A DNA stretch of 64,000 nt from Gemmatimonadaceae bacterium (GTDB lineage Bacteria; Gemmatimonadota; Gemmatimonadetes; Gemmatimonadales; Gemmatimonadaceae), in NCBI GenBank assembly GCA_041499635.1, contig JBGQKT010000001.1, positions 2,195 to 66,194 of the forward strand, written 5' to 3'. Shown here piece after piece: positions 28,606 through 44,052 of the stretch. The notes beneath the pieces are model-generated. The model worked only from the letters and a program-made list of their open reading frames with translations, ran no database searches and was not told where the DNA came from. Positions within the stretch are counted from its first letter, which is position 1. Each line of letters opens with the position of its first letter. Both the position numbers and the translations under genes were made by a program.

Positions 28606-28648
28606 GGCAGTCTGAGGAGAGGCAAAAGCAGAGCTAACTGCCTATCTC

Positions 28649-30040
28649 TCAGTGCACCAGAAGACGTGCGTTTATAGACTGAAAATCAGCTTCACTGGCA
28701 GGTGTCAGGCGCCAACGCCCAGTCCCGGATTCATCGTAGAAAAGAAACCGCAGTCGATATTGAGCATACTCCCAGAACTGCACTCGACTCCTCTGCGTCA
28801 CCGAGGTGCTACTGAGCGGGACATTGGTGTTTTGCTCATATATCTGGTCTGGCTCCCCGAGTGACACGTATACCTTGCCTCGATCCGACAGCCAGCCAGA
28901 CCGACCACTTGACTCTTCCCGAAACCGTATGTTGGCTTGGAGTATTCGCGTGAAGTACGCTTGCAATCCTTCGTGCTCAGGAGTCCCAGGAACGGGATCT
29001 GTTGAACGCAGAAAATCTGCCCAGACTGTTCCGCGACGTTCAGGCGGAGCATCGCGAAGAGCCCGTATTCGATCAGGTGCAGCGTAGTACCTTAACTCAG
29101 CAAGCATTTCATCAAAGGACAAGAGAGGAATGTCGTTGCCGAAGCTGACAAATACCGGAGCCCTCACCGTGTCAGTGGCATCACCCCGCGTGAAGGTGAT
29201 ATTCGCGATCCCAATGCCAACCCTCGAGATCGGAACTTTCAACGATCCGCTCAATAAATTACCCTGACGCTGCAGCAGTACAGTGTCCCGCCACAGAACG
29301 GCACCACGATCATTCTGCACCACGAAGCCAACTGGAAGTCGCGACTGCATTCCATATCCTTCCAGGTAGACAGTGACTGTGCTGTCTTGCCCAAATACTG
29401 CACTCGATCTCGGGCTCGCGAGAATGCGTGGTAATGAATCCAACATTATCCGCTGAGATGCTTCGTAGACGATTACAGGAGTTGACAGCAATCCATTCTT
29501 CAACGCCGGAACGGTGATTTGTCCCTCCTGCGAAGTGCTACGAGCGCTTCCAGCGTCACGCACTTGAAATGAGATCGTGTAGTTCCCAGGACTGACCTTG
29601 AAGTAATGCTGAAAGATTACGCTTTCATCTGTACGATTGATTTCCTTGAAAGTAGGGACTCTGACAATCTCCATGCTGTTTACTGCTGCCACCTGATTCC
29701 CGGACTGAGAAAGGATCAGGTGAACTTCATAAGGCGCTCTATAGGAATCTCCCTCTCGGACGAAGCTGAGTGAACGATTCGGTATCGATACGCTGGCAAG
29801 GATCAGTGTCGCGTCGATCGACGGCGTGGCGAAGTATGCGATCTTCCCGACAAACGAGAGAGGACTGCCAGTGGCGATGAGTCCCATCTGGTGATACACG
29901 GCAGTCGGATCCTGCGGGGCCTGGCTTTCAACAGATGATCTTGCCGCAACAATTTGCTGGCCACCTTGCGGATGTGCACACGCATTCAGAAGAATCACAA
30001 TACCAAGGAGGACAGGACATGCGAGTGTCGTTGTCTGCAT
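28649..30040 (-). CDS. GWxTD-domain lipoprotein
   Basis: LLNAC lipobox; C-terminal RI..AN..F...GWLSDRGKVYVSLGEPD motif. Confidence 0.88.
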   Translation of the reverse strand: MQTTTLACPVLLGIVILLNACAHPQGGQQIVAARSSVESQAPQDPTAVYHQMGLIATGSPLSFVGKIAYFATPSIDATLILASVSIPNRSLSFVREGDSYRAPYEVHLILSQSGNQVAAVNSMEIVRVPTFKEINRTDESVIFQHYFKVSPGNYTISFQVRDAGSARSTSQEGQITVPALKNGLLSTPVIVYEASQRIMLDSLPRILASPRSSAVFGQDSTVTVYLEGYGMQSRLPVGFVVQNDRGAVLWRDTVLLQRQGNLLSGSLKVPISRVGIGIANITFTRGDATDTVRAPVFVSFGNDIPLLSFDEMLAELRYYAAPDRIRALRDAPPERRGTVWADFLRSTDPVPGTPEHEGLQAYFTRILQANIRFREESSGRSGWLSDRGKVYVSLGEPDQIYEQNTNVPLSSTSVTQRSRVQFWEYAQYRLRFLFYDESGTGRWRLTPASEADFQSINARLLVH

Positions 30041-30090
30041 TCGTCTATGTACCCTATCCGGCTTAGTCAGTTTCTATTACCTTCGGCCGC

Positions 30091-31029
30091 GTGTCTGAAC
30101 AGAGCTTGCTCGGCTCAAAGATAGCCGGGTACACCATCGAGAGTGAGGTTGGCGAAGGGGGAACCTCGGCAGTCTATAGGGCCACACACCAAACCCACGG
30201 GACGGTGGCTCTAAAGGTACTCCGGGAAAAACTTCGCCTCGATCGAACTGCAGTCGCGCGTTTTGTACGAGAGGCTCAGTATGGTGCCCGTGTCCAACAC
30301 CCTAACGTTGTCCGCACCATCGAGATCGGCGAGTCAGAGCGTGGGCTTCATTTCCTTGCCATAGAATGGGCAAGCGGTCAGCTCCTCGAGCGGTACGCGC
30401 GACAGCATGCACCATTACCGCCAGAAGAAGTCTCTACAATAATCACTCAGATTGGGGCGGCGGTACACGCTGCACATCAAGCAAACATTGTCCATCGAGA
30501 CCTGAAGCCTGAAAATGTCATGTACGATCCGGAAACACATCAGGTTAAGCTGCTTGATTTCGGAATCGCGACAGACACTCAGACAGGAGCAGACGAACGG
30601 CTCACCAGAGCAGGCTTCTTTGTTGGATCATTGATGTACGTAGCCCCAGAAGCTCTCTCTGGAGAACTTGTCACTCCCGCTGCCGACCAATACAGTCTTG
30701 CAACCATTGCTTACTATCTGCTGACACGATGTCTTCCCTATACAGCCAAAGCACCACGGGAGATGTTCACGCAGTTGCTTACCCTTCCACCAATTCCACT
30801 CAATTCAGCAAAGGAGAGACTCAGATTCAATAGTACGCTGGAGTCAGTTGTGATGCGAGCGTTGTCGAAACAACCAGCAAGCCGATTTCCCGATGTCATG
30901 GCATTTACAAAATCTTTCCAGGATGCAGTAACGGGAACTACAGCGGCACCTGCTGCAGCTGGAGAGCCCGAGAGTAATACCAGCGGGATCTTATCCCGGG
31001 TTCGAGGCATACTGCGGCGAAACAACTAG
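30091..31029 (+). CDS. Hanks-type Ser/Thr protein kinase, soluble
   Basis: GEGGTSAV, VALK, HPNVV, HRDLKPEN, DFG, YVAPE; no TM or sensor domain. Confidence 0.95.
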   Translation: MSEQSLLGSKIAGYTIESEVGEGGTSAVYRATHQTHGTVALKVLREKLRLDRTAVARFVREAQYGARVQHPNVVRTIEIGESERGLHFLAIEWASGQLLERYARQHAPLPPEEVSTIITQIGAAVHAAHQANIVHRDLKPENVMYDPETHQVKLLDFGIATDTQTGADERLTRAGFFVGSLMYVAPEALSGELVTPAADQYSLATIAYYLLTRCLPYTAKAPREMFTQLLTLPPIPLNSAKERLRFNSTLESVVMRALSKQPASRFPDVMAFTKSFQDAVTGTTAAPAAAGEPESNTSGILSRVRGILRRNN

Positions 31030-31929
31030 GTCGTATTCCTGAATTGGAAGCCACAGAGAGAACGTAGAGCCTCGCCCAAGATCGCTTACAAGCGAAATAT
31101 CACCACCGAGCAAACGAGCAAGGCGCCGGGAAATTGCGAGACCTAATCCCGTACCACGATTCGGCGAATCTGCACGTGGGCCCGCTCCAACTTGCTCAAA
31201 CTCTTCGAAAATTCTTTCCTGATCAGTAACTGCAATGCCAATTCCCGGATCCGTAACCTGTACTGACAGCCACATCTCTTCAGCCTGATCCACGCCTGAC
31301 AAGTTATTTGGCATGCCTAGTGTCAGAGCATCCGAGCGCGGCACCATGCGTGTTCGAACAACAATCGTGCCCTTGTGCGTGTACTTCACGGCGTTTCCAA
31401 TCAAATTGACTAAAATTTGACGAAGGTGAGTTGGGTCAGTCCGAATCTTCGGCAGGGCAGCTCCCATAGTCAGAGAGAGCGTAAGATTCTTTTCATTCAA
31501 AAGCGATTCAACTTCACTGGCGACATCCAGAATAAATGGCCGAATGTCCAGAACCTCGGTATGAACATCCAATCGGCCCGCAGCTATCTTAGCAAGATCC
31601 AAGATTTGATCAACAAGGTGCCGAAGGTGATTCGCTGAAGCTTCGATCCGCTCCACTGGTTTCACCTGACGAGGAGCGAGCTCGCCATACACGCCCTCAC
31701 GAAGCAAGTCGACAAACCCAACAATCGCATTGAGCGGTGTCCGTAACTCATGCGAAACGTTGGCAAGAAATTCATTTTTCATGCGGCTCGCTCTAAGCAG
31801 CTCGGCCGATAATCGCTCGAGTTCTTTTGATCGTTCTACAAGCTTTTGAGCTTGTTTGCGTTCGTGCTGCAGGAGAAGCCCTAGGGCAGCAAAAACCAAA
31901 ATCGCTAAGATTGAGGCTAGCGGCGTCAT
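30991..31929 (-). CDS. Sensor histidine kinase (one TM, HisKA, HATPase)
   Basis: FLANVSHELRTPL H-box, NLIGNAVKY N-box, DPGIG, FEEFEQV, GTGLGLAI. Confidence 0.95.
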   Translation of the reverse strand: MTPLASILAILVFAALGLLLQHERKQAQKLVERSKELERLSAELLRASRMKNEFLANVSHELRTPLNAIVGFVDLLREGVYGELAPRQVKPVERIEASANHLRHLVDQILDLAKIAAGRLDVHTEVLDIRPFILDVASEVESLLNEKNLTLSLTMGAALPKIRTDPTHLRQILVNLIGNAVKYTHKGTIVVRTRMVPRSDALTLGMPNNLSGVDQAEEMWLSVQVTDPGIGIAVTDQERIFEEFEQVGAGPRADSPNRGTGLGLAISRRLARLLGGDISLVSDLGRGSTFSLWLPIQEYDLVVSPQYASNPG

Positions 31930-31997
31930 TGATAGGAGTGGGACAATTACCCCTGACGAGTCAAGCTCGATGATATCTGCAGAGGCTGACAGATGCT

Positions 31998-32585
31998 ATG
32001 ACTGATTACCAATCTCTTGTACAGCTTCTCGCTCAAAAATCAGTCAGACGCGGGCGATTTACGCTTGCTTCAGGAAAGATGTCAGACATTTACATCGATG
32101 TTCGGATGACATCAATGAGTCCAGAGGGATTATCCCAGATTGGACCACTGGCTCTTCAGGCAATCAGATCCACAGGATGGTCAGTCGATTCCATCGGAGG
32201 AATGACGCTTGGAGCAGACCCCATAGCATATGCAATTAGCTACGCGAGTAGCCTTAACACTCCTGCTCTTCGTGCATTTACCGTAAGAAAAGACACCAAA
32301 CTTCACGGAACTGGAAAGCTCATCGAAGGGCCGTTCCGTCAAGGAGACAATGTTGTCATCGTTGAAGATGTCATAACAACGGGTGCTTCAGCTCTTCAGG
32401 CAATCGAAACAGTGACAAATGCCGGCGGCTATGTCCAAGGAGTGCTGGCCTTGGTAGATCGCAAGGATGGCGGACGAGAAACCATAGAACACAAAGGCTA
32501 CACTGTGATCTCGCTTATTCCAGTTGATGAGATCATCGCTGCATTGACTGCCGTAACCGCAACTCGAGCTTCTGCTGCCGAGTAA
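31998..32585 (+). CDS. pyrE: Orotate phosphoribosyltransferase
   Basis: FTLASGKMS, GGMTLGADP, VRKDTKLHG, VIVEDVITTGAS, VDR. Confidence 0.96.
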   Translation: MTDYQSLVQLLAQKSVRRGRFTLASGKMSDIYIDVRMTSMSPEGLSQIGPLALQAIRSTGWSVDSIGGMTLGADPIAYAISYASSLNTPALRAFTVRKDTKLHGTGKLIEGPFRQGDNVVIVEDVITTGASALQAIETVTNAGGYVQGVLALVDRKDGGRETIEHKGYTVISLIPVDEIIAALTAVTATRASAAE

Positions 32586-33444
32586 CCCACCCGGGATAGG
32601 TTACAGCAGGACGAAACGACCGTAGAGTATGAACGTACGGAAGAATTAGTTGCTCTCGAAAGTAGAGTAACATACCAGCCCCGTCATAAACTTCTCGAAA
32701 TTGGACTGGGGACATTTTCATCATTGTTCGAATGTGCCGCCCAAAGCTTTGAGGTGATGAGTAGTCCAGATAATTCGCTACGCTTGCAACCGAAAGACCT
32801 GGATTCTCAAACAACCTTGCCGCCCTAATCAACCGAGCTAGAGCAAGATACCGTTTGGGTGGGGGCAGCTGAGCCCGAAAGAAGCGGCTCATCAAGGTGC
32901 TCGGCAGAATACATAGCTGCCTCGAAAGCTGACGAACGGTGTGTACCTGTGGAGTCTGGCCAAAGAGAACTTCAAAGAATCGCCAGCAGTCGTTTGGCGC
33001 ACCGGTGAGATCACCGCTCAGATGTCCCAAGGCTGTACGCTGTAGATCGTTCGATCTCTCGGCCGTAAGAATGTCTCGAAGCGTTTGCCAACCTGATGGT
33101 TGCCGTGCATCGATAAGTATGCGAACGCCCAATTGACCAAGCGCCAATACCGATTGTGGCGTTGTATACTGTACTTCAGTAAGAAGTGCCATTGCAGGAA
33201 CTCGTGGGAATTCACGGACCATGGCTGCCATGCGAGCGCTGCTGTGAAGGCCATATCGCGCTATAGATACGAGTACAGCGCCAGCTCTACGCTCACGAAG
33301 ATCTGCAATAACTTCATCAAGAGATTCTCGGTGAAGAGCAGAGTAAAGTCCCTGAGCAGCAGCGTCGACACGTACGCGCTCGTTCGGAGTAAGAATTGTA
33401 GAGACTGGCATTGGAGGAAGGCCCCGCTTACGGAAAGCTGCCAT
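32533..33444 (-). CDS. AraC-family transcriptional regulator
   Basis: C-terminal double HTH: R..RAARLF..PGLSVASVANYLDYSSPQSFGR; ATG 33444 has a GGAG SD and an upstream TATACT. Confidence 0.85.
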   Translation of the reverse strand: MAAFRKRGLPPMPVSTILTPNERVRVDAAAQGLYSALHRESLDEVIADLRERRAGAVLVSIARYGLHSSARMAAMVREFPRVPAMALLTEVQYTTPQSVLALGQLGVRILIDARQPSGWQTLRDILTAERSNDLQRTALGHLSGDLTGAPNDCWRFFEVLFGQTPQVHTVRQLSRQLCILPSTLMSRFFRAQLPPPKRYLALARLIRAARLFENPGLSVASVANYLDYSSPQSFGRHIRTMMKMSPVQFREVYDGAGMLLYFREQLILPYVHTLRSFRPAVTYPGWVTRQQKLELRLRQSMQR

Positions 33445-33571
33445 TATAGGCTCCAGAGGTAGACGCCAGCCAGTATAAGACACACGCGTCAGCAGAGCGT
33501 CAGCGCCAAGGGATATACATTCAACGATTTCAGCAAAAGCGTCAGTCCGATGTATATATTTCGATTAGAAC

Positions 33572-33953
33572 TGCAATCAGCTGGATGGTCGCGCTTTGGT
33601 ATCTTAAGGATACTAAATCGAGGAAAGTCCGGGCTCCATGAGCAAGCTGCCAGGTAACGCCTGGGCGTTGTGGCTAATTAGTCACAGCGACGGAAAGTGC
33701 CACAGAAAACAGACCGCCATGATCTTCATGGTAAGGGTGAAACGGTGGGGTAAGAGCCCACCGCGGTTATGGTGACATAACCGGCACGGCAAACCCCAGT
33801 TGGAGCAAGGCCAAGCAGGCGGCGAGAGAAGCTCAACTCGAAAAAGACGTCGCGGGTAGGCTGCTAGAGGTTGCGAGCAATCGTAGCCCGAGAGAAATGA
33901 CCGTCACGACGGTTTACACCGTTGGACAGAACCCGGCTTACAGGCTGAGCGCA
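33572..33953 (+). ncRNA. rnpB: RNase P RNA, bacterial type A
   Basis: Universal GAGGAAAGTCC (about 33619) and ACAGAACCCGGCTTA (about 33926) P4 strands; GAAAGTGCCACAGAAA, GGGTGAAACGG, GCAAACCCC..GAGCAAG; P1 pairing TGC..TCAGCT/GGCTGA..GCA. Confidence 0.97.
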
Positions 33954-33998
33954 TTCAATGAACGGTCTCTTGCAAAACTTCGCAGGAGGCCGTTTATC

Positions 33999-34898
33999 AT
34001 GCAGATCTCATCACCGATACAAATGCTCCTCACACGAACCACACTGCTCGCCACTTCAGTTGCAATTGCCGGATGCAAATCTGCAACAGTACCAAGTTCG
34101 GTTTTACAGCCGGTAGCTACAGCCATCAGCAATGACACAGCAACTAAATCAACTGGCCTGTGGGTTTTAACACCAAATCGCCAACCGCATACATATCACT
34201 CGGTAAGCCAGACTACAGTCAAGGAACTTTCTAGTTCAACCAACCGACAAAATACAATCGAGACCGGCACGACTTTTACCATTTCGCTCGATCAATCAAG
34301 GACACCATTAATCATCTCAGGATATATAGACACGGTAAGATTCCGCCAGCAGAATCAGGCTCTGTCCGAGAATGACTCGTTTGCTCTACCCTTACTTTTT
34401 GAGGGACAGCTAACCTCCACAACACTAATAATCAGCGTAAAGAACTCTCAAGTCACAGATGGAGCGTGTAGTCCATCTATAAGTTCTATTCTTGGCGATT
34501 TGCGCGCTGTAATAACCGCTTACCCATTACGGTTAACTCCGGGATTTATATGGAGAAATTCAACAGTAGCTACGACATGCACTACAGGTGGAATTCTAAC
34601 AACAAGAAAAACCGTTCAGTCATTTAGGGTGATTGGGGAAAGAACTTTCAACACAATAAGAGCTCTCCTTCTACAACGGGTGGACTCGACTTACATCGTT
34701 GGGGATGGAGCCCAAGGCAACCATCAAATCCATCTAGAGGGGATTGGTAATGGTACAGCTAATATCTACATCAACCCAACTGTAGGGGTCACATTAGGAG
34801 TAGAGCTTTCTGAAAAATTAGAAATTACCATCATCAACTCCGGAAAGGCACGACACTTCATCCAGGAAGTAACCCAGAGAGTAGAGGCAAAAAATTAG
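33999..34898 (+). CDS. Hypothetical lipoprotein (Thr/Ser-rich)
   Basis: AGGAGG SD before ATG 33999 and IAGC lipobox; the ORF-track start (33897) lies inside rnpB and is rejected. Confidence 0.75.
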   Translation: MQISSPIQMLLTRTTLLATSVAIAGCKSATVPSSVLQPVATAISNDTATKSTGLWVLTPNRQPHTYHSVSQTTVKELSSSTNRQNTIETGTTFTISLDQSRTPLIISGYIDTVRFRQQNQALSENDSFALPLLFEGQLTSTTLIISVKNSQVTDGACSPSISSILGDLRAVITAYPLRLTPGFIWRNSTVATTCTTGGILTTRKTVQSFRVIGERTFNTIRALLLQRVDSTYIVGDGAQGNHQIHLEGIGNGTANIYINPTVGVTLGVELSEKLEITIINSGKARHFIQEVTQRVEAKN

Positions 34899-36007
34899 TC
34901 AACAAGGCGGAGTGGCATTACCAAGCATAAATACTCAGCCGAATCAGACCAATTTTCAGGCTCGAGAGTAGCGGCTCTTTCGGGAGCCTTGAAGGTCATC
35001 TTCACTTCATCTGTCGGTATGTATCTGAGGATCTCGAGTAGATAGCTGGCATTGAAGCCAATATCGAGCTGGTCACCTGTATAGCGAATTGGTAATTCAT
35101 CCTGAGCTTCACCTAAATCAGGCGTCTGAACGCTGAATTTAAGCATACCTGTATTGAACGAAAGCCGAATCCGATGAGTTTGATCCGATGCAATCACTGA
35201 CATTCGCTTCAAAGCACTTATCAAAGCAGCCTTATCTGCAACAGCTACTCGATCATTATCCCGCGGAATTACCAACTCATAATTTGGATAAGGCCCTTCA
35301 ATAAGCCGAGTAAAGACAGACGTAAAGGGTGACCGAAAACCGATGTGATTCTCCCCACGAGCAATTTCAAGTTCCTCCTCAGCTGGAAAAAGCTTTCGTA
35401 CCTGCTCCAAAGCTTTCGACGGGACTATTAAATCCTGGGAAGAACCAAGCTTAGATCCTACCGGAATACTCATCTTCGCTAAGCGATGACCGTTCGTTGC
35501 TACCATGGACATTTTGTCTGCTCTCAGCTCCCACAAAACTCCATTTAATATCGGACGACTCTCTTCTGTAGAAACAGCAAATGAGGTGTGTGCAATTAAC
35601 TTCTGCAAATCACTTGATTTAACTTGCCAGCTGTCACTAAAAGATACGTTTGGAAATGTCGGAAACTCATCACGAGGAAGTCCAAGAAGTTTAAACCGAG
35701 AACGTCCACATTCAAGCGTTATTCGTTGCTCACCAATAGCACCAATTTTTACAGGTGATGGTGGTAACTCACGAGCAATCTCAGCCAACTTCTTTGCTGG
35801 AATTGTTACAGCTCCTGCCATTTCAACATCAGCTTGAACCTCAGTACTAACAGCAATGTCCAAATCTGTTCCTGATAATCGAACCCCCCGCTCAATTGTT
35901 TCAACTAAAATATTTGCTAAGACAGGTAAAGTAGTCTTCGTAGGAATACTAGCACTTACTGTACTTAAACCCTCCTGAAGCTTTTCTCGAGATATCGTTA
36001 GACGCAT
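34895..36007 (-). CDS. dnaN: DNA polymerase III beta sliding clamp
   Basis: TTLPVLANIL, GTDLD, SRPILNGV, VATNGHRLA, RLIEGPYPNY, IGFNASYL, LVMPLRL. Confidence 0.98.
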   Translation of the reverse strand: MRLTISREKLQEGLSTVSASIPTKTTLPVLANILVETIERGVRLSGTDLDIAVSTEVQADVEMAGAVTIPAKKLAEIARELPPSPVKIGAIGEQRITLECGRSRFKLLGLPRDEFPTFPNVSFSDSWQVKSSDLQKLIAHTSFAVSTEESRPILNGVLWELRADKMSMVATNGHRLAKMSIPVGSKLGSSQDLIVPSKALEQVRKLFPAEEELEIARGENHIGFRSPFTSVFTRLIEGPYPNYELVIPRDNDRVAVADKAALISALKRMSVIASDQTHRIRLSFNTGMLKFSVQTPDLGEAQDELPIRYTGDQLDIGFNASYLLEILRYIPTDEVKMTFKAPERAATLEPENWSDSAEYLCLVMPLRLVD

Positions 36008-36196
36008 TTGATCGAAGGAAGAGTATCGAGGGAAGTGCTTGGAGTACTTTCTTCTTCTTTCTTTGTTAAAGAGAGAATTGCTAGTAGTAGTAGTAGGCAA
36101 TGTGAAATACGTGTAGAACGTAGTAAAGTATTCGTTTACCTCACGTTGTGCTATTAGATGTCTTGTAGATTAACTGTAGCTGGATGTTGATTTCTA
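36008..36196. other. Chromosomal replication origin (oriC) unwinding region
   Basis: AT-rich dnaA-dnaN spacer with (TAG)5 DnaA-trios at 36082-36096 next to degenerate DnaA boxes at 36101-36118; strand bias flips here. Confidence 0.8.
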
Positions 36197-37576
36197 TTAG
36201 CGAAGTGCTTCAAGTCGGTCTCTTATTTTGAAAATGCGTTGTTTTAATATCGGGTTACTACTTATTTCGGTTCTAGTTTTATCAATACTGTGAATAACTG
36301 TTGAATGATCTCGTCCTCCGAATGCGTTTCCAATCTCAATTAATTGAGTTCCTAGAAGATCTCGTGCTAGGAACATTGCAATTTGTCTTGGAATGGTAAG
36401 CAATTTGGTTCGCGTCTTGGAGCGAAGTCCTTCTGGTGTTACACCCCATTCCTGAGCTACGTGGTCTTGAATTGTTAAGATAGTTAATCCTGGTTGGGCA
36501 TTTACATGTTGTCCATTTGTTGGTTTTAGCTTGTCTCTCAGAGCATCTCGAGCAAGATCGATTGAAATGTCACGATGTTTTAGAGAGGCAAACGCTAAGA
36601 GCTTTATGATTGATCCTTCAAGTTCTCGTATGTTGGACCTAACATTCTCTGCGATGAGGCGAATTACCTCTTCTGGTATTGAATGTTCGAGATGATCGAT
36701 TGCTGCTTTTTGACGAAGAATAGCAACTCGGTGCTCAAAATCTGGCAGTTCTATATCAGCCACCATCCCCCACTGAAAGCGGCTTACTAAACGTCCTTCG
36801 AGGCCTGGAATTTCTGAAGGAGGTCGATCGCTTGTGAGCACTATTTGTCGTCCTGCTTCGTATAGTGCATTAAATGTGTGGAAAAACTCCTGCTGAGTTG
36901 CTTCTTTGCCCTTAAGGAAGTGAACGTCGTCAATTAGCAGTAGATCGGTTTCTCGAAATTGCCGGCGAAAGTTTGGTGTAGTGTGATTCTGTATGGAAGT
37001 TATCAGTTCGTTTGTGAACTGCTCTGTACCAATAAATGTGATACGGATATCAGGATGGAGGGCGATTATCTCATGTGCAATAGCCTGCATAAGGTGAGTT
37101 TTTCCCAGTCCTGTGTCGCCGTAGATAAAAAGTGGATTGTATACCTTACCAAGAGCCTGTGTTACTGCATGTGCTGCAGCAGCTGCAAGCTCGTTTGACT
37201 TTCCGATTACGAATTGATCGAAGGTATAACGTGGGCTAAGTGGTGCTTGGAGTGCAGACGTCTGGGTTCTAGCTGCGGCTGAAGGAGGAGCTACGAAAAA
37301 ATCCATCTGGGATCGCTTTTTTCGTTCCTCATTTACCTTAAAAATGACCTGGATCGGATGACCAAGAGCTATTGGCCCGTAGGATGTGAATAAGTCTGCA
37401 TGTTTTGATTCGTTCCAGTCTGCTGCAAATTGGTCTGGAACGCCTACGGATATAATATTTCCGTCGATACTGAGTGCTTCGGTTGGCTCAAGCCATGTGC
37501 GGAAAGTTTGCTCGGGGATATCTTGGCGAGCTCTGTCCAGCAGCCTTTTCCAAATTTCCGAAGCGGTAAGTGACAT
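36197..37576 (-). CDS. dnaA: Chromosomal replication initiator
   Basis: YTFDQFVIGKSN, YNPLFIYGDTGLGKTHL, LLIDDVHF, QQEFFHTFN, NIRELEG, IGNAFGGRDHSTVIHS. Confidence 0.99.
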   Translation of the reverse strand: MSLTASEIWKRLLDRARQDIPEQTFRTWLEPTEALSIDGNIISVGVPDQFAADWNESKHADLFTSYGPIALGHPIQVIFKVNEERKKRSQMDFFVAPPSAAARTQTSALQAPLSPRYTFDQFVIGKSNELAAAAAHAVTQALGKVYNPLFIYGDTGLGKTHLMQAIAHEIIALHPDIRITFIGTEQFTNELITSIQNHTTPNFRRQFRETDLLLIDDVHFLKGKEATQQEFFHTFNALYEAGRQIVLTSDRPPSEIPGLEGRLVSRFQWGMVADIELPDFEHRVAILRQKAAIDHLEHSIPEEVIRLIAENVRSNIRELEGSIIKLLAFASLKHRDISIDLARDALRDKLKPTNGQHVNAQPGLTILTIQDHVAQEWGVTPEGLRSKTRTKLLTIPRQIAMFLARDLLGTQLIEIGNAFGGRDHSTVIHSIDKTRTEISSNPILKQRIFKIRDRLEALR

Positions 37577-37585
37577 GGGGAGGCA

Positions 37586-37614
37586 ACCGTAGCGAAAGAT
37601 TGTGGAAAAGTCAA
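37586..37614 (-). promoter_or_regulatory. dnaA promoter with an embedded DnaA box
   Basis: TTGACT (37614-37609), 17 bp, TACGGT (37591-37586); TTTTCCACA at 37609-37601. Confidence 0.75.
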
Positions 37615-37721
37615 TGCACCAACGTGCGAAGTACTTTATGTAGCTTGATGTATGTTATGCTGGCGACTAGTTTTATGTGCTATTCTACCTTGTATATTCG
37701 CGCTGGATTTAGGATAAAGTT

Positions 37722-37886
37722 ATGGGCAAGCCCACATATAGACCTCGTAATAAACGCCGTGTTAGGACTCATGGATTCCGGGAGCGAATGGCAACGCGAT
37801 GGGGGCGTGAAGTATTGAGTCGTCGGCGTAAGAAGGGCCGGAAGCAGCTAGCAATTCGACTGCCGACTAAGTACGCTGGTTCGTAA
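37722..37886 (+). CDS. rpmH: 50S ribosomal protein L34 (54 aa, absent from the ORF track)
   Basis: Hand translation: [54 protein letters not shown]. Confidence 0.97.
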
Positions 37887-38232
37887 AAAACAGGGGTACT
37901 CCCGCCGATTTCGGCTTAGGGAGAGCGAGTTAGTGACTATCAAGGGAGTAGGGAAGAGGCTGAGAACAGAGCACTTGAGTGCTCGTGCTGCCTCCTCTCT
38001 GCTCCCTTATTGTCGGGTTGCAGTGATTGTTGGGAAATATGGTCATTCAGCTGTTGAGCGAAATAAGTTGAGGCGCAGGCTACGAGAATTAGTGCGACTC
38101 CATGTTATCCCTGATTTTACTGGGATTGATCTTGTTCTCTACGCCGGATCGAGTGCTTATGGCCTCGAGTTTGAAAAACTTGCTGGCGAAGCAATCAGCA
38201 TCAAAGCTCAGCTTACTTCCGTAGTGCAGTAG
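37876..38232 (+). CDS. rnpA: Ribonuclease P protein component (start uncertain: CTG 37876 or GTG 37933)
   Basis: [25 protein letters not shown] (RNR motif), DLV; sits between rpmH and yidD. Confidence 0.9.
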
Positions 38233-38237
38233 AGAAA

Positions 38238-38447
38238 ATGCGGAAAGCTCTCATTCTTGTCATTCGTGGTTATCAACTTTGGATCTCGCCGTTACTACCT
38301 TCGGCATGTCGCTACTACCCGACTTGTTCGGCCTATGCAGTTGAAGCGATCGAGAAACACGGTGCAGTTAGTGGTAGCTGGCTAGCTCTTCGAAGAATTA
38401 CTCGATGTCATCCTTTCCGCTCTGGCGGATACGATCCAGTCCCATAA
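38238..38447 (+). CDS. yidD: Membrane protein insertion efficiency factor
   Basis: [33 protein letters not shown]. Confidence 0.97.
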
Positions 38448-40088
38448 ATGGAAAAGCGCTTCTTTCTCGCACTACTCCTTGCAGCTGCTGTAGTTGCAAT
38501 TACACAGATTTTGTTCCCAGTTATACGTCCGGGGCCAGTCACTCGTGGTAAGAATGACAGCCTAAGCACGAGCAAGACTCAGAATCGATCGATTGCAGAT
38601 GTAGATCGGAGGCCAAGCGTAGCACAACCAGCCGGTGGTTCTACGTCTACCGTGACATCAGCAGCTGCACCGGAACTAACGACTCTGGTAACGCCAAAAT
38701 CCATCTACCGTTTTAGCAATATTGGAGCTACTCCCGTTTCGGTGGCCTTGCGGGACTACAAAAATCTTGCGCCTGCTGGTGGTGCTGTGGAGCTTGGTGT
38801 TCCAGGCCAACCACTCTTGAGTTATGCCCTCGTTGTAAATGGCGATACAACGCGATTTGATGGCATTCCCTTTCGCTCCCGAGCCTCAACCAATCAGGCT
38901 GCTTACGATGCAATCGTTGCGAACCATAGTGTTGAGATCTCCTATGAGGTTCTGCCTGACAAGTATGTCGTAAGGGTTGATGGCAAAGTTGAAGGCGCTG
39001 ACCAGAATACCTATCTACTGATACAGCTACCTACGAGCCTAAAACCGGCGGAATCGGATACGCTCTCTGACCTTCGAAATCTGGCATTCTCATTCAAATC
39101 GGAGCGTGAAAATGCACGTATTGTCCGATTTGGAAGTCTTGATCCTGGCGAGCAGCGTCTCGAGACAGGGCCATTGGTTTGGGCTGCCGTTAAAAACAAG
39201 TACTTCGTTCTTGGACTTCTAAATCCTCCAGGAGCGACGTTCAATGAAGTTGCCTTGAAGGGAGGTGCCAGAACTTCCAAAGTTGCTACGACCGCTTCAG
39301 CGATAATTGTCAAGTCATTGAAGACTGGCTCCTTTACGCTTGACCTCTATGCTGGGCCGCAGCAATCGACAGAGCTTATCGCAATGGGTCGCGATTTCGA
39401 TCATGTGAATCCGTACGGATGGCGATTTCTACAGGGCGTCGTTCAGCCCATTGCTGCACTTTGCATTCGGCTTCTCCTTTGGATGCACCAAGTACTTAGG
39501 CTAAGCTACGGGTGGGTGCTGATCATCTTCGGAATCCTCATTCGAGTTGCTCTCTGGCCGTTGAATCAGAGCGCGATGAGATCAAGCATGAAAATGCAAG
39601 AGATCCAACCGAAGCTTGCAGAGGTCCAAAAGAAATACAAAGACAAACCGGAAAAACAGCGAGAGGAAATAATGAAGGTGTATCGGGACGCAGGTGCGAG
39701 TCCGTTTACGGCCCTCACGGGATGCCTTCCAGCGTTGATCCCGATGCCTGTTCTCTTCGCGCTATTTTTCGTTTTTCAGAACACAATCGAATTTCGGGGA
39801 GTGCCTTTTATGTGGCTCCACGATATTTCCATCAAAGATCCGCTCTATATTCTGCCTGTCTTGATGGGGATATCGATGTATGTGCTGTCATGGATTGGTC
39901 TGCGGAACGCGCCACCGAACCCGCAGGCGAAAACTATGAGCTACATGTTCCCGGTTATGATGACCTTTATTCTGGCGAACATGGCATCGGGCTTGAACCT
40001 CTACTATACAGCTCAAAACTTGGCGGCCATTCCTCAGCAATGGCTACTGGCACAAGAACGTGCACGAAGGAAACCACCAAGTCGGTAA
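38448..40088 (+). CDS. yidC: Membrane protein insertase
   Basis: N-terminal TM, periplasmic domain, YGWVLIIFGILIR..LWPL, GCLP.LIPMP, DPLYILP, GLNLYY. Confidence 0.97.
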   Translation: MEKRFFLALLLAAAVVAITQILFPVIRPGPVTRGKNDSLSTSKTQNRSIADVDRRPSVAQPAGGSTSTVTSAAAPELTTLVTPKSIYRFSNIGATPVSVALRDYKNLAPAGGAVELGVPGQPLLSYALVVNGDTTRFDGIPFRSRASTNQAAYDAIVANHSVEISYEVLPDKYVVRVDGKVEGADQNTYLLIQLPTSLKPAESDTLSDLRNLAFSFKSERENARIVRFGSLDPGEQRLETGPLVWAAVKNKYFVLGLLNPPGATFNEVALKGGARTSKVATTASAIIVKSLKTGSFTLDLYAGPQQSTELIAMGRDFDHVNPYGWRFLQGVVQPIAALCIRLLLWMHQVLRLSYGWVLIIFGILIRVALWPLNQSAMRSSMKMQEIQPKLAEVQKKYKDKPEKQREEIMKVYRDAGASPFTALTGCLPALIPMPVLFALFFVFQNTIEFRGVPFMWLHDISIKDPLYILPVLMGISMYVLSWIGLRNAPPNPQAKTMSYMFPVMMTFILANMASGLNLYYTAQNLAAIPQQWLLAQERARRKPPSR

Positions 40089-40098
40089 TGAAGTTGCC

Positions 40099-40884
40099 AT
40101 GCGGATTACATATATTGGTCACGCAACGCTACTAATTGAACTTGCCGATCGGATTTTTCTTACCGACCCAAACTTTGATTCAAACCTGGGTGGTTTCCTA
40201 CCAAGAGTAAGCGCGCCTGGTGTATCGATTGGCTCGCTTCCACGGATCGATGCAATCGTATTAACACATGCACACGCCGACCACCTTTCATTTAAATCAC
40301 TCGATGCGCTCCCGCAGGACGTGCCGATTTATGCGCCGCCCGCGATAGCAAAGTGGCTGAAGAAGCGCGGTTATAGCATGGCGCAAAAAATCGCTCCAGG
40401 TGAGTCAGTTCAAAATGGACCGGTTGAAATCAAAGCAGGTACAGCGACTCACCGAGGCAATCGATATGCTGTGGATCGCTGGCGGAGCTCGGCGAATATG
40501 TACCTGTTCGATACTAATAACGTGTCCTGTTTTTTTGCAGGCGATACTGGATTGACTCCGGAGAGCACTCATCTAGTTGAACGTCATGTGGGTGCTGCAG
40601 GCCGCAGGCTCGATCTTGCTCTACTGCCGATTGGGCACGCGCCCTGGTGGAAGCCAGGATTCAGAAAAGGACATTTGACGAGTGGTGACGCACTCACATT
40701 GTTCGATCGGCTCGATGCGAGGTACCTGATTCCGTATCACTGGGGCACGTTCGATCACGTAACGTCGAAAGCTCACGACGCGATTCAACGTCTTCGAGCT
40801 CAATTGCCTGCACACCCTCGTAGTGAAACAGTGCAGATCCTCGAGCCTGGCATGAGCTTCGACCTACCAATTCCCGAGCAGTGA
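40099..40884 (+). CDS. MBL-fold metallo-hydrolase
   Basis: ITYIGHAT, LTDP, THAHADH (HxHxDH), FAGDT, LPIG, PYHWGTF. Confidence 0.9.
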   Translation: MRITYIGHATLLIELADRIFLTDPNFDSNLGGFLPRVSAPGVSIGSLPRIDAIVLTHAHADHLSFKSLDALPQDVPIYAPPAIAKWLKKRGYSMAQKIAPGESVQNGPVEIKAGTATHRGNRYAVDRWRSSANMYLFDTNNVSCFFAGDTGLTPESTHLVERHVGAAGRRLDLALLPIGHAPWWKPGFRKGHLTSGDALTLFDRLDARYLIPYHWGTFDHVTSKAHDAIQRLRAQLPAHPRSETVQILEPGMSFDLPIPEQ

Positions 40885-40901
40885 ATGGGAGTTAGCTGAC
40901 A

Positions 40902-42272
40902 TTGGGTAACATTGGTGTAAGCTCAAACACTATTGTTGCGCTCAGCACTCCCGCGGGCCGAGGAGCGATAGCAGTTATCCGCGTGAGCGGTGATAATGCG
41001 GTTGAGATTGCGCGACGTCACATAAATCCATGGCCCGGTCGCGCGCGTGAGATTTCGCTTTGCATGGTCAGCAGTGGTCTGACGATCCTCGACCAGGCAC
41101 TCATCACCTTCTACAATGGACCGGAATCGTTCACGGGTGAAGACGTAGTCGAGATCTTCACGCATGGCGGCCATGTAGTGCCACTGTCGATCGTGGCTGC
41201 CTTGATAGAATCTGGTGCCAGGCAGGCACTCCCCGGAGAATTCACCCGGCGCGCAGTCCTGAATGCAAAGCTCGATATCGTTCAAGCAGAAGCAATCGGT
41301 GATCTGATCGACGCGCGATCCGGTGTAATGCAGCAAGCGGCCCTGTATCAACTTGATGGAGGGCTGTCATCTCGAATAGCGTCGGTGCGAGAAGGAGCAC
41401 TACGTGTCGAATCGCTAATTGCGTATGACGTCGACTTTCCCGAAGAAGATGATGGGCCGATCTCTAAAAATGAAATTGCTACAGCTACTGATTCTCTTGC
41501 CCGTTCGCTCGACCTTCTGCTTTCTACCATCCCTGTTGGGCAGATTGCTCGAGAAGGCGCGATCGTCGTCATTGCCGGCGTTCCGAACGTTGGGAAATCC
41601 TCATTGTTCAACGCATTGATTGGTGAAAGTCGAGCTATCGTAGCCGACATTTCCGGCACTACCAGAGATGCAATCGAAGCGATGATTGATGCTGGTTTGT
41701 GGCCGATCCGTTTGATCGATACTGCAGGCCTTCGTGACAGCACTGATGTTGTTGAAAGACTTGGCATTGAAGTCAGCGAACAACGACTTGCTGCAGCGCA
41801 CTTAATAATTGCATGCGGCGATACTGAGCTCTCCCTTGAAAATGCAGCTGCACTGTCATCGTCGCTTTCACGAGCGCCGGTAATTCAGGTACTGACAAAG
41901 AGCGATTTACAAAGGAACTCCGATTCAGCGTCTGGAAAACCAAACTCGTCAATCCCAGTGAGAGTAAGCGCAATCACGGGTGATGGGCTTGGTGCTCTTC
42001 GAGCTAGAATTGATTCCGTACTGGATGAGAAGTACGGAGCGATAGCTCCGGAAACACCGATCCTAACGCGAGCCCGACATATTCATGGAATCAGCGTTGC
42101 TCGAAATGAGATTGAGCAATTCAAGAATGCTTGGGAGAAGGAGTCACTTCCTGCACCGGTGGCGGCTGTACACTTGAGAGCTGCTGTCGTCGCTCTCGAG
42201 GAGTTAATTGGAGCGGTAAGCGCAGACGATGTGCTGGAGAGAGTATTCAGCTCTTTTTGTGTGGGGAAATAA
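40902..42272 (+). CDS. mnmE: tRNA modification GTPase
   Basis: [54 protein letters not shown]. Confidence 0.98.
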
Positions 42273-42298
42273 GGCTACAGCGAGTAGCTCAGTTCTCG

Positions 42299-43237
42299 TT
42301 ATGCGGTTTCGGCAGCTTCGCTGCCAGCGGTGGTGATCTCGAGAGCACTCGCCCGAATCGTCCAGGCGTAACCTCTGGTTGCAATTGCATGCTCGACCAT
42401 CTTCGCGCCGAGATAGTAGCCACTTCTTTCTGGAAGAACTTGCTCGCCAGCGCGTCGTCGCTCGTCTGTCATTCCGTCTGACAGATATTTCAGGCGTAGC
42501 CCCAAACCGGTCTTATCAAGATTTCCAATAAGTGATCGCGAAATGATGGGTTCCATCTCTCGAACCCGTGCATATTCGCGGCGATCATATCCGAAGTATT
42601 CCCAGGCAGCATGACCGGGGCTGATTACCCTGGATACCTGGACTGAGATTCCCTCGTTCACGAGCAATTCTCTCAGGTTTACACGTTTCCCCGTCTCCCA
42701 ATACGAGTAGTAACCTTCCATATCAGCGATTGCCTGTCGCATATCGCTCCGGCTTTCCGGAGAGGTGTAGCGAACAGCGTGAGCGATCTCGTGAGCAAGC
42801 CATAAAGGAATAAGCTCAGGATCGAGGCCGAGCCCGTGAGTTTCCGGGTTGGTGATACTGGTGAAATGCTCGAGGCAAACGAAAGCAACACCGCGACCGT
42901 TTACTACAAGCTCACCGGCATTGGCTGCTCCGACTCCGACCATTAGCACGACATCGATGTCGGAGTCGACGTCGAGCAACGCTCGGCACTGCTCTTCGGT
43001 GTTACGAGCTAAAGAGACTACGTCGATTCTCTCGAGCATTGTGCGGAGATCGCCTCGTCCTGCAAGAGCTGCGGAGCGCGCAACATCAGCGAAGTGAGGA
43101 CCGTCAGGATCCAGGACGTAATTTGCCCAGTATGCCTGTAGAATATTGCGATGAGTGTCGAAGTAGCGATGGTATGCCGCGATGCGATCGGTGCTGTTAA
43201 GAACTGCGAAGAAATCAGGCAGCAGGTTAATCAGCAT
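42299..43237 (-). CDS. DUF2268-like putative Zn-dependent protease
   Basis: LAHEIAHA (HExxH), downstream NEG, and RSGYYLG motif. Confidence 0.7.
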   Translation of the reverse strand: MLINLLPDFFAVLNSTDRIAAYHRYFDTHRNILQAYWANYVLDPDGPHFADVARSAALAGRGDLRTMLERIDVVSLARNTEEQCRALLDVDSDIDVVLMVGVGAANAGELVVNGRGVAFVCLEHFTSITNPETHGLGLDPELIPLWLAHEIAHAVRYTSPESRSDMRQAIADMEGYYSYWETGKRVNLRELLVNEGISVQVSRVISPGHAAWEYFGYDRREYARVREMEPIISRSLIGNLDKTGLGLRLKYLSDGMTDERRRAGEQVLPERSGYYLGAKMVEHAIATRGYAWTIRASALEITTAGSEAAETA

Positions 43238-43397
43238 CAACGACCGGGTCGTGAGTAATGACAGAGCGCGGCGCGCTTTTGGATGCGAGAAAATACGCTG
43301 CAGGGAAATTCAGAACAAGAGCGATGTAGCTGGACTCTCGCGAAAAAACTGGCACAGAAATTTCCTCCCATGATTTCATGCATCGCGACGAGGTCTT

Positions 43398-44048
43398 ATG
43401 ACTACTCTCCGTCAAATCGAACTGAGCTGTCCAATCTGTGGTAACAGCTTTCATTCTCAGGCGGTCGTCTCGACGAATACCTTCAGAGGAAAGCGCACTG
43501 ATTTTCACGAACATGCTGCTGGGACCCAGCCGCTGGCGTACCTTGTCCATATGTGCAGCGAATGTGGCTACTCTGGAGGAGAACGTGACTTCTCGAGTGT
43601 CGCGGAGATCAGCCCGCTCCTGAAAGAACACGTTTTGAACGAACTTGCACCGAAAGCGCCGGTGACAGTAACCGGCTCAGACAAATATGAGACAGCTGCA
43701 AAGGTTGCCGAGTGGCAAGGTGGGGAAGCTCGTCAAATAGCAGATCTCCTGCTACGAGCAGCCTGGTGCTGTGTGGATGAGAATGACACTGAGGCAGAGC
43801 GCTACTTCCGGCGTCTTGCAGCCTGGGCATTCGAGCAAGCCTTGGGAAGCTACGATGGCGTCGTGACTGAGGAGCGAGCAGTTCTCACATATCTGGTGGG
43901 TGAGCTCTGGCGAAGGATTGGAGACGTTCACCAGGCTCGAGAGTGGTTCGATCGAGTCTCTGATGAAATTGTCGATTCGGAGGCGCAGCAGTGGATACTT
44001 GCTGTTTCAGAGCAACAGCGGACCGATCCTCAGGAATGGTTTGGCTGA
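43398..44048 (+). CDS. DUF2225-family protein (Zn-ribbon plus TPR-like helices)
   Basis: CPICG...TDF...VHMCSECGYS, LRAAWCC, LTYLVGELWRRIGD...A..WF. Confidence 0.85.
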   Translation: MTTLRQIELSCPICGNSFHSQAVVSTNTFRGKRTDFHEHAAGTQPLAYLVHMCSECGYSGGERDFSSVAEISPLLKEHVLNELAPKAPVTVTGSDKYETAAKVAEWQGGEARQIADLLLRAAWCCVDENDTEAERYFRRLAAWAFEQALGSYDGVVTEERAVLTYLVGELWRRIGDVHQAREWFDRVSDEIVDSEAQQWILAVSEQQRTDPQEWFG

Positions 44049-44052
44049 ATCA

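Follow-up and report, generated by a model that had tools for sequence, protein, structure and literature searches.

A graded G+C trough centred on the replication origin of a Gemmatimonadaceae bacterium suggests a local mutational footprint of initiation

The DNA analysed here (the window) is a 64,000-nucleotide stretch of contig C1 in the 3.3-Mb assembly of an uncultured soil Gemmatimonadaceae bacterium. The dnaN gene (sliding clamp; 34895..36007, minus strand) encodes 370 aa from an ATG at 36007 and has a third-position G+C content (GC3) of 0.35, and dnaA (36197..37576, minus strand) has a GC3 of 0.34. The spacer between them (36008..36196, minus strand) contains a TCCACA-type box, a (CTA)5 trio run and an AT-rich stretch. 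It aligns with six relatives at the TCCACA box, the (CTA/CTG)n run and the AT-rich block, and is predicted from these motifs to be the basal unwinding module of oriC. The divergent spacer between dnaA and rpmH (37577..37721) holds one near-consensus DnaA box, TTTTCCACA (37601-37609), and may be a second part of the origin or an autoregulatory site. It is followed by rpmH (37722-37886, plus strand, as read from the sequence), rnpA, yidD, yidC, an MBL-fold hydrolase and mnmE, core genes that occupy 37722..42272 on the plus strand, the leading strand of the right replichore, with GC3 values of 0.37-0.49. On the dnaN side are rnpB (RNase P RNA; 33573..33956, plus strand) and a plus-strand partition locus (20087..21861) made up of a parS-like palindrome with two mismatches (20087-20102), parA and parB (parAB at 20178-21861).

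Around these genes G+C drops steadily toward the origin across tens of kb. The genome background is 57.9% and very uniform (1-kb windows: mean 0.5787, SD 0.0194), although all the genomes compared are MAGs and binning itself favours such uniformity in the rest of the assembly. Within the window, 1-kb G+C is 0.55-0.57 at the ends and 0.50-0.53 at 18-33 kb, and reaches 0.452, 0.432 and 0.415 at 34-37 kb; the lowest 300-bp value is 0.360 (36000-36299), and the dnaA-dnaN spacer lies at 36-41%. At window sizes of 1, 3 and 5 kb the 15 lowest-GC windows of the assembly all come from C1, as do the lowest 12 when the size is 10 kb; the G+C of C1 itself, 0.532, is 5 SD under the mean contig value. A sequence-only reading of the window had proposed a GC trough centred on the replication origin in core genes, from hand counts that were exact on recount in ten of ten cases (eight of G+C, two of G+T), and the genome-wide windows place this trough far beyond chance. 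The same reading had named similar troughs at many non-origin loci as evidence against itself; a search of the rest of the assembly found none that was comparable, and none occurs in 220 kb of contig from the closest relative. In the literature, no published account of a trough on this scale was found.

The profile is left-right symmetric, is centred on the dnaA-dnaN spacer and has two length scales. The core (34000..38300), with 1-kb G+C of 0.415-0.48, amplified strand skew and raised silent divergence, corresponds to a first exponential of amplitude 0.123 and length about 1.3 kb (e-folding about 1.3-1.6 kb overall). The halo is a second exponential of amplitude 0.070 and length about 31 kb (e-folding about 20-30 kb overall). 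It fills the window (1..64000): GC3, 0.37 at the origin, has climbed to 0.57-0.59 at 20-40 kb, and neither window end attains the genome mean of 0.644. Graded models (two-exponential or logarithmic) beat the best step by a dAIC of 62-100 in the genomes G000, G031 and G014, which bears out the earlier description of the change as gradual rather than step-like or island-like. The 31-41 kb first assigned to the trough gives its location correctly but not its width, since the whole window is filled and the trough of the closest relative spans about +/-40-50 kb. Similarly, a decay over about 10-20 kb had been suggested, and decay there is, but on two scales (about 1.3 kb in the core and about 30 kb in the halo) instead of one. 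G+C at parS and parAB is 0.515-0.52, follows the general slope and shows no local minimum, and parAB and the only parS-like site are 15-16 kb away from the GC minimum. A ParB-parS zone as organiser of the trough is disfavoured on both counts, as is the idea of reduced repair under ParB/SMC that had been put forward with it.

Third codon positions carry the drop. The GC3 of dnaN (0.349) and dnaA (0.344) is below that of each of 1643 long ORFs elsewhere (0.644 +/- 0.041), and all 39 long ORFs on the contig fall under the genome mean. With distance from the origin, GC3 runs from 0.37 (0-2 kb) through 0.46, 0.52, 0.555, 0.55 and 0.57 to 0.59 (30-40 kb), against 0.644 for the genome. Near the origin GC3 is thus down by about 0.27-0.30, while GC1 and GC2 are essentially flat and amino-acid use is barely shifted, FYMINK/GARP exchanges being symmetric (11/7 and 13/12 at 0-2 kb). 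The rnpB gene, inside the trough, has a G+C of 0.555 against 0.45-0.52 in its flanks and acts as a built-in control, showing that sequence under constraint withstands the drift. In the core, TTAA and CTAG are less strongly avoided, and no motif-specific effect was seen.

The locus is inherited vertically. Gene order is collinear along the whole contig with four congeners (G002, G006, G007 and G014), and the closest relatives have the same trough; in the closest, G031, it lies within a 256-kb contig with a flat, normal baseline on both sides beyond about +/-40-50 kb. The combined DnaA and DnaN tree, in which discordance had been named as a warning sign, is fully supported, and trees of genes lying 2-8 kb and >10 kb away reproduce its topology with full support. 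Because gene order and gene trees agree with those of relatives, the trough is in vertically inherited core genes and is neither foreign DNA nor a mis-assembly. C1 has the lowest G+C of the 286 contigs in this fragmented MAG, which could point to mis-binning, a chimeric contig or an acquired low-GC island carrying dnaA and dnaN; against end-to-end collinearity, the trough in the relative's long contig, concordant trees, graded edges and a drop confined to silent sites, such an origin is extremely improbable.

The trough coincides with a switch in strand composition. The third positions of dnaN (T 0.38, C 0.12) have the leading-strand composition expected of them; those of dnaA (A 0.38, G 0.13) have a lagging-strand composition, despite the shared strand. 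From dnaN to dnaA, plus-strand G+T jumps from 0.464 to 0.568, a step larger than all 2077 between adjacent blocks in the rest of the genome (maximum 0.098, SD 0.026). Cumulative GC skew reaches its minimum at about 36.0 kb, and the GC minimum and the change of skew sign both fall within 36008-36196, the spacer with the conserved DnaA-box, (CTA)n and AT-rich elements. The leading/lagging switch that had been read from T-ending dnaN and A-ending dnaA codons, both genes being on the minus strand, is real. On the leading strand at 0-2 kb, third positions are C 0.147, G 0.224, T 0.371 and A 0.259, C having fallen from 0.27 and T having risen from 0.195 toward the core. With the coding-strand effect removed and G000, G031 and G014 pooled, the GC-skew term for replication stands at 0.27 over 0-2.5 kb and at 0.10-0.13 farther out (a 2.7-fold amplification), and the TA-skew term takes values of 0.20 and 0.11 inside 6 kb versus about 0 beyond. 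Extra strand asymmetry was looked for in the halo, and none was seen.

Trough amplitude varies among lineages. The trough is also found in another genus, where it is deep in G032 and G033 with a weak skew increase, an observation that runs counter to a mutational reading. A broad trough is absent from the other families of the order and from G004, a member of the same genus whose genome GC is equally low. Both MutS1 (PF01624) and uracil-DNA glycosylase (PF03167) are present in 17 of 17 genomes, trough or not, so that loss of either repair pathway was rejected as the cause. The genus is at about 58% GC, well under the other families of the order (67-70%), and silent divergence is higher by the origin. 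Both would be expected if lineage GC were falling everywhere and origin DNA, mutating faster, stood nearer to the new equilibrium. However, G014 is saturated at 4-fold sites relative to G000 and G031 (p4 0.65-0.69) and all three share the same profile of GC4 against distance, which makes the gradient an equilibrium property. With G004 free of a trough and the rise limited to GC-to-AT and A<>T changes instead of extending to all classes, a gradient of rate alone is very unlikely.

Silent-site divergence bears on the remaining explanations. Relative to G031, 4-fold divergence climbs toward the origin (p4 from 0.36 to 0.52, LogDet from 0.50 to 1.38), an increase of 1.5-2.7-fold within about 6 kb. 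In three related pairs lacking a GC4 trough, core/flank p4 ratios are 1.00, 1.03 and 1.06; dnaA and dnaN are thus not intrinsically fast at silent sites. Under a reversible, stationary substitution model applied to one moderately diverged pair, the sole basis on which mutation and fixation bias are separated here, core rates per site, expressed relative to those at 15-40 kb, are 2.35 [1.95-2.86] for S>W transitions, 1.90 [1.28-2.64] for S>W transversions, 1.23 and 0.99 for W>S changes, 1.9 for A<>T and 1.0 for C<>G. In the halo the change is small (S>W transitions 1.24 [1.08-1.45]).

These rates bear first on direct selection for an AT-rich origin domain, in which silent sites would be recruited to make the duplex less stable, to curve it or to bind a nucleoid or partition protein that prefers AT-rich DNA. 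The centring on oriC and the recurrence in related lineages, including another genus, agree with it, as do published remarks that link low-GC genes by oriC to helix opening (PMC8495750). However, such constraint should cut silent divergence, which instead climbs originward and does so in none of the trough-free relatives. Moreover, tens of bp, not tens of kb, suffice for unwinding, and the extra strand asymmetry is not predicted. The lack of a broad trough in G004 and the order's other families, and of a minimum at parS and parAB, also speaks against this selection, which is distinctly unlikely. A weaker GC-restoring force near oriC (silent-site selection, or GC-biased gene conversion via recombination) is unlikely as well, if less so. 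As an example, rejection of imports that span the origin or dnaA would leave a recombination shadow whose length reflects tract lengths. The halo would suit it, being strand-symmetric, 20-30 kb long (a plausible recombination-tract scale) and little changed in silent divergence, as would the differences in amplitude between lineages. In the core, however, AT-to-GC rates are 1.23 and 0.99 relative to far sites, where a simple weak-selection calculation gives about 0.6; A<>T changes, which are GC-neutral, are up about 1.9-fold; and strand asymmetry is amplified. A survey of 145 species, in which recombination peaks near the origin and correlates positively with GC (PMC11879095), predicts the opposite. 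The sequence-only reading had offered a mutational or selective regime without choosing; silent divergence that climbs originward through GC-to-AT rates, alone among the G+C-changing classes, favours the former, and selection for a melting domain fits poorly with it.

The trough is thus best regarded, with somewhat better than even confidence, as the product of an origin-anchored, AT-biased and partly strand-asymmetric local mutational input tied to initiation. It would be the equilibrium footprint of an input whose anchor is the unwinding site of oriC, within the dnaA-dnaN spacer; extra GC-to-AT changes (C>T/G>A, but also G>T/C>A) would peak there and then decay with distance on both replichores. 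In the steep core the input would be replication-strand-asymmetric, leading-strand sequence gaining T and losing C, and in the shallow halo strand-symmetric. In rnpB and at the first two codon positions purifying selection would mask the pressure, leaving silent sites to reveal it, and amplitude would be an evolvable, lineage-specific trait. The most likely molecular source is that origin-near DNA is single-stranded for longer, or is synthesised atypically, at each initiation; candidates are a helicase running ahead of the polymerase, slow replisome establishment, abortive or repeated initiations and a transient in dNTP pools. Prolonged single-strandedness with deamination, as first suggested, fits the C>T gain in the core, but simple cytosine deamination is insufficient because transversions and A<>T changes rise too. 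The halo may have a different cause, given its small rate change and lack of extra strand asymmetry. A counterpoint comes from E. coli mutation-accumulation data, in which replication is most accurate near the origin (PMC6606806). A bolder version can be advanced tentatively: initiation itself may be locally mutagenic in these bacteria, each firing, or each abortive or repeated one, exposing or mis-synthesising DNA as far as tens of kb away, with a probability that decays, and leaving a stable gradient in essential genes. The depth and length of that gradient would be a sequence-only readout of an initiation physiology that evolves fast between sister lineages.

The fall in G+C toward the origin, nearly all of it at silent codon positions in core genes of vertical descent, suggests a mutational footprint left locally by the initiation of replication. 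This bears on two long-standing questions: what sets and maintains the G+C of bacteria, and whether the input of mutations differs from place to place on the chromosome. The genome is a natural experiment, in which core genes at equal population size span equilibrium GC3 values of 0.34-0.64 by oriC distance alone, and sister lineages that differ in amplitude extend it. Mutation and fixation bias are separable with existing methods (population SNV spectra, mutation accumulation), and the biochemistry of initiation (ssDNA exposure, abortive initiation, dNTP transients) becomes tied to a sequence signature for which any genome can be scanned. In metagenome assemblies, origin contigs are at risk of being mis-binned or flagged as foreign, and dnaA and dnaN, genes that often serve as markers, are compositionally atypical in such lineages and evolve faster at their silent sites.

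Several known systems resemble the trough in part. Replication strand asymmetry is familiar as GC and TA skews that switch at oriC (PMC3269016). As in that case, the sign changes at the origin and the leading strand is G/T-rich, in third positions of co-oriented and head-on genes alike. However, classical skew has a roughly constant amplitude along the replichore and leaves G+C unchanged, whereas the trough combines a 2.7-fold rise in skew amplitude within 2.5 kb, a TA skew confined to about 6 kb and a loss of up to 27 GC3 points. The DUE/DnaA-trio unwinding module of oriC shares the same centre, the dnaA-dnaN spacer, but is tens of bp long, non-coding and functionally selected; the trough is 100-1000 times wider and affects silent sites over >64 kb of mostly coding DNA. 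Low-GC horizontally acquired islands show a comparable local drop of >15 points, but the trough has graded edges, core genes, retained synteny and concordant trees, and is limited to silent sites. Daubin and Perriere (2003) are said to have found the replication terminus AT-enriched and G+C3 structured along bacterial chromosomes; there too GC3 varies regionally in core genes with replication coordinate, but at the opposite end, and the effect is much broader and shallower. The origin-anchored wave of base-substitution rates in mismatch-repair-deficient E. coli and other bacteria is likewise origin-driven, position-dependent relative to oriC and replichore-symmetric, and dNTP transients at firing were proposed as a cause of it (PMC6606806). 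That wave extends over hundreds of kb with the polymerase most accurate by the origin, and was seen in laboratory lines defective in mismatch repair with no compositional trough reported (PMC6606806), whereas mutS is present in the trough genome. In vertebrate mitochondrial DNA, mutation gradients scale with the time spent single-stranded during replication (PMC3787671). Here too silent-site composition and skew vary continuously with origin distance, the mitochondrial cause being replication-linked damage, and the core matches that expectation in its loss of C, gain of T and 2.35-fold S>W transitions, but not in its S>W transversions (1.9) and A<>T changes (1.9), nor is skew raised in the halo. 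The mitochondrial case is that of an organelle with strand-displacement replication and a gradient along one strand over the whole genome, whereas the trough is symmetric about a bidirectional origin.

The G+C content of the window falls gradually towards the dnaA-dnaN spacer, forming a trough with a steep core and a broad, shallow halo. At 1-kb resolution, GC is 0.55-0.57 at the window ends, 0.50-0.53 at 18-33 kb and 0.452, 0.432 and 0.415 at 34-37 kb, and the lowest 300-bp value (0.360, at 36000-36299) lies on the spacer. The genome under study, G000 (286 contigs, 3.33 Mb), has a very uniform background (1-kb GC mean 0.5787, SD 0.0194; contig GC SD 0.009), and its longest contig, the origin-bearing C1 (67.8 kb, of which the window covers 2195-66194), holds all 15 of the lowest-GC windows genome-wide at 1, 3 and 5 kb and all 12 of the lowest at 10 kb. 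G000 is a MAG, and since binning tends to select for uniform GC, outliers may sit unbinned. The hand counts on 60-bp samples that first indicated the trough were all exact on recount which, together with the placement of the lowest windows on C1, confirms that it is real. When the baseline is set to the genome mean, two exponentials (amplitudes 0.123 and 0.070, lengths 1.3 kb and 31 kb) fit the profile best, with a logarithmic curve nearly as good. The two arms of the trough differ by no more than 0.02 in any distance class. The best step model is worse than the graded fits by a dAIC of ~80, so a step-like profile is rejected and the graded shape noticed earlier stands.

The central genes of the window, called from Pfam, Rfam and direct sequence reading, comprise mnmG (16372-18300), parA (20178-20969), parB (20959-21861), polA (25310-28264), rnpB (RNase P RNA; 33573-33956, plus strand, Rfam 294.6 bits), dnaN (34895-36007) and dnaA (36197-37576), both on the minus strand, rpmH (37722-37886, plus strand), rnpA, yidD and yidC (the last ending at 40088), mnmE (40902-42272) and mutS (53820-56471). 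The rnpB gene is flanked by dnaN and a gene for an AraC-type regulator. Third positions on the coding strand are T 0.38, A 0.27, G 0.22 and C 0.12 in dnaN, and A 0.38, T 0.28, C 0.21 and G 0.13 in dnaA. These T-ended versus A-ended codons, with a step of 0.104 in the plus-strand keto fraction between the two genes that exceeds all 2077 adjacent-block controls, bear out the leading/lagging switch proposed in the sequence-only reading. Three elements of the spacer align among relatives: a TCCACA-type box, a (CTA/CTG)n run and an AT-rich block. This is the layout of a predicted DnaA-box/trio unwinding module. Given the strand switch and this layout, a putative bidirectional replication origin is best placed in the spacer, and dnaA would then be head-on and dnaN co-directional with their forks.

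The coding-strand effect cancels out when co-oriented and head-on genes are compared. The remaining replication terms, pooled over G000, its closest relative G031 and the congener G014, are 0.272 for GC3 skew and 0.200 for TA3 skew at 0-2.5 kb from the origin, 0.131 and 0.109 at 2.5-6 kb, 0.108 and -0.003 at 6-12 kb, 0.109 and 0.017 at 12-20 kb, and 0.102 and -0.034 at 20-40 kb. From the 30-40 kb bin to the 0-2 kb bin, the leading-strand sequence of G000 loses C (0.27 to 0.147) and G (0.31 to 0.224) and gains T (0.195 to 0.371) and A (0.22 to 0.26). The trough core is strongly strand-asymmetric and the halo is symmetric.

GC3, the G+C content of third codon positions, is 0.349 in dnaN and 0.344 in dnaA, under that of all 1643 long ORFs outside C1 (0.644 +/- 0.041, minimum 0.414), and all 39 long ORFs of C1 lie under the genome mean. 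Counted from the dnaA-dnaN spacer, GC3 is 0.371 at 0-2 kb, 0.463 at 2-5 kb, 0.522 at 5-10 kb, 0.555 at 10-15 kb, 0.553 at 15-20 kb, 0.573 at 20-30 kb and 0.587 at 30-40 kb, with equal values for co-oriented and head-on genes in every distance bin. GC1, GC2 and the FYMINK and GARP fractions hardly change along the trough; amino-acid exchanges against relatives are symmetric, and no AT drift was detected in them. At 2.2-2.5 kb from the origin, rnpB holds a GC of 0.555 between flanks at 0.45-0.52, and its orthologues have 0.54-0.59 regardless of trough depth. The compositional pressure thus shows itself only at weakly constrained sites.

Gene order is collinear with four congeners over the whole of C1, and maximum-likelihood trees from three sets (DnaA and DnaN; nine genes 2-8 kb away; ten genes >10 kb away) gave one fully supported topology, ((G000,G031),G014),G007 | (G006,G002) | (G033,G032). 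In G031 (DnaA 88% identical), the origin lies on a 256-kb contig where GC stays level at 0.56-0.58 on both sides, between -140 and about -50 kb on one and between +40 and +77 kb on the other. Between these flanks is a single symmetric trough (4-kb minimum 0.469), and GC3 climbs from 0.38 to 0.59 (30-45 kb), 0.61 (45-70 kb) and 0.64 (>70 kb). Collinearity, concordant trees and the same trough in G031 contradict foreign DNA or an assembly artefact; likewise, the agreement of the dnaA/dnaN tree with those of near and far genes upholds the earlier view that these two genes are core, not foreign. The trough is real and vertically inherited.

Within the genus, the trough runs from 0.60 to 0.453 in G014 (halo length ~26 kb), is moderate in G007 and G006 (to 0.507), shallow in G002 and absent from G004. 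G033 and G032, which the gene trees place outside the genus clade of G000, have a deep, narrow trough (0.64 to 0.48, single length ~5 kb), and in six genomes from two other families of the order (67-70% GC) GC dips by just 3-6 points, over 2-4 kb. The mean GC of 39 Gemmatimonadaceae loci, taken with +/-10 kb flanks, falls from 62% to 54.6% at dnaA/dnaN. The trough is therefore a widespread trait of the family, its amplitude and width shifting quickly between lineages. Its depth correlates weakly with the skew jump over these loci (rho 0.30, p = 0.06; rho 0.48, p = 0.002), values that carry no phylogenetic correction and come from flanks too short for broad troughs. A long frame (580-850 aa; e.g., G020:C8:174390-176336 and G025:C290:9206-11083) occurs in G019-G030, G032, G033 and G035, which include some Gemmatimonadaceae besides members of the order's other families; most other-family copies contain two segments with 30-44% identity to DnaA domain III. 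The distribution of this frame follows that of the trough imperfectly, and no such paralogue was found in the G000 genus, G031 or G034. In a six-frame search of same-order genomes, the dnaA frames G026:C4:123415-124803 and G028:C1:778717-780105 each contained one in-frame TAG.

Divergence between G000 and G031 at 4-fold sites (p4) climbs with nearness to the origin, from 0.360 at 30-40 kb (LogDet 0.50) to 0.388 at 5-10 kb (0.58), 0.444 at 2-5 kb (0.79) and 0.518 at 0-2 kb (1.38); dnaN alone reaches 0.605 despite 93% protein identity. Direct selection for AT-richness, which would also lower GC near the origin, should not raise silent divergence in this way. Three related control pairs of similar divergence that lack a trough at 4-fold sites give core/flank p4 ratios of 1.00, 1.06 and 1.03; the rise therefore goes with the trough and not with dnaA and dnaN as genes. 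Against every outgroup, 4-fold sites are saturated (p4 0.64-0.73), and the other trough-bearing pairs (G033/G032, G002/G006 and G031/G014) are near saturation at silent sites. G014 is saturated against both G000 and G031, yet has the same profile of 4-fold G+C against distance. This shared profile marks the gradient as an equilibrium property: a faster clock alone would not produce it, and a substitution bias that depends on position is needed.

Rates per site were estimated by GTR decomposition with bootstrap and expressed as the ratio of the core (<6 kb) to the 15-40 kb range. Changes from G/C (S) to A/T (W) are raised 2.35-fold for transitions (95% interval 1.95-2.86) and 1.90-fold for transversions (1.28-2.64), and A<>T 1.92-fold (1.06-3.34); the ratios are 1.23 (1.04-1.46) for W>S transitions, 0.99 (0.66-1.36) for W>S transversions and 1.03 (0.57-1.52) for C<>G. 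At 6-15 kb, S>W transitions alone are raised (1.24, 1.08-1.45). A relaxed GC-favouring fixation bias could move GC3 from 0.64 to 0.37, but the simple weak-selection model calculated here then predicts W>S rates cut to ~0.6 and A<>T unchanged, and neither is observed.

An origin-anchored mutational regime is favoured, with moderate confidence, as the best explanation of the trough. The sequence-only reading of an origin-proximal mutational or selective regime is supported by the tests that it suggested itself, namely profile shape, gene trees, relatives' profiles and divergence against distance. Extra GC-to-AT mutational input anchored at the origin, partly strand-asymmetric nearby, would fit the core best. 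Its putative signature combines C>T/G>A, G>T/C>A and A<>T changes, and since the latter two classes are also raised, plain cytosine deamination is insufficient as the sole source. A candidate source is damage or misincorporation in an atypical early phase of synthesis, which might take the form of ssDNA exposure, helicase run-ahead, abortive or repeated initiation, or a dNTP transient. For the halo, either a tail of this process or a weaker GC-restoring force may be responsible. The ParB-linked cause also proposed earlier is disfavoured, and ParB/parS is rejected as the trough centre on position, as parAB and the only parS-like site lie 15-16 kb off with no local GC dip. That site, the palindrome TTTTTCACGTGACACA at 20087-20102, is 75 nt upstream of parA and has two mismatches to the consensus, a match that chance alone could give in the window. 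Loss of MutS1 or UDG is rejected as a correlate, both families being present in 17 of 17 genomes, troughed or not. In a check for motif- or methylation-linked depletion, no 4-mer or palindrome departed from base composition in either direction (136 tests, |z| <=3.1), and GATC was not clustered. The genome-wide avoidance of TTAA and CTAG is merely relaxed near the origin: TTAA observed/expected is 0.51 genome-wide versus 0.77 in 30100-42100 (core +/-6 kb), with 19 copies in the central 4-kb bin versus 2-6 elsewhere.

Several individual loci of the window also stand out. A mechanical ORF at 33897-34898 (plus strand, 333 aa, no Pfam match) adjoins dnaN and overlaps the 3' end of rnpB by 60 nt, so its real start is probably further downstream. 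It evolves fast, with 58% identity to G031 (neighbours 88-96%) and only 26-30% to the syntenic proteins of other congeners. Two cold-shock-domain genes lie at 2640-2921 and 28340-28543 (both minus strand); the former differs from G031 at only 4.4% of 4-fold sites (neighbours ~36%), which suggests either very strong constraint on its silent sites or a recent exchange. A small ORF at 44729-44980 (minus strand), overlapping the start of a beta-CASP gene, shows no differences from G031 at 30 4-fold sites, yet its amino-acid identity is only 78%; this ORF is unlikely to be a real gene and could instead mark conserved non-coding or regulatory sequence. The origin lies on unusually long contigs in several fragmented MAGs (67.8 kb in G000, where the median is 8.7 kb; 71-256 kb in G014, G007, G006 and G031), possibly because strains are less heterogeneous there, copy number is higher or lower-GC DNA assembles more easily.

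The trough is classed as replication-linked compositional structuring, and full-text literature searches turned up no published account of a compositional trough centred on the origin and tens of kb wide. It shares its sign switch with classical GC skew, which lacks the distance-dependent amplitude and net AT gain, and its centre with the oriC unwinding element, which differs in scale. The regional GC3 effect known from bacteria is an AT-enriched terminus. In a 145-species survey, recombination peaks near the origin and correlates positively with GC (PMC11879095); both this and the terminus effect predict the opposite of an origin trough. The mutation-rate wave of MMR-deficient E. coli, where a dNTP transient was proposed, is likewise origin-anchored, symmetric about oriC and moves with it, but extends over hundreds of kb with fidelity best close to the origin (PMC6606806). 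The nearest analogue is the mutation gradients of vertebrate mtDNA, and the trough core may work in a similar way.
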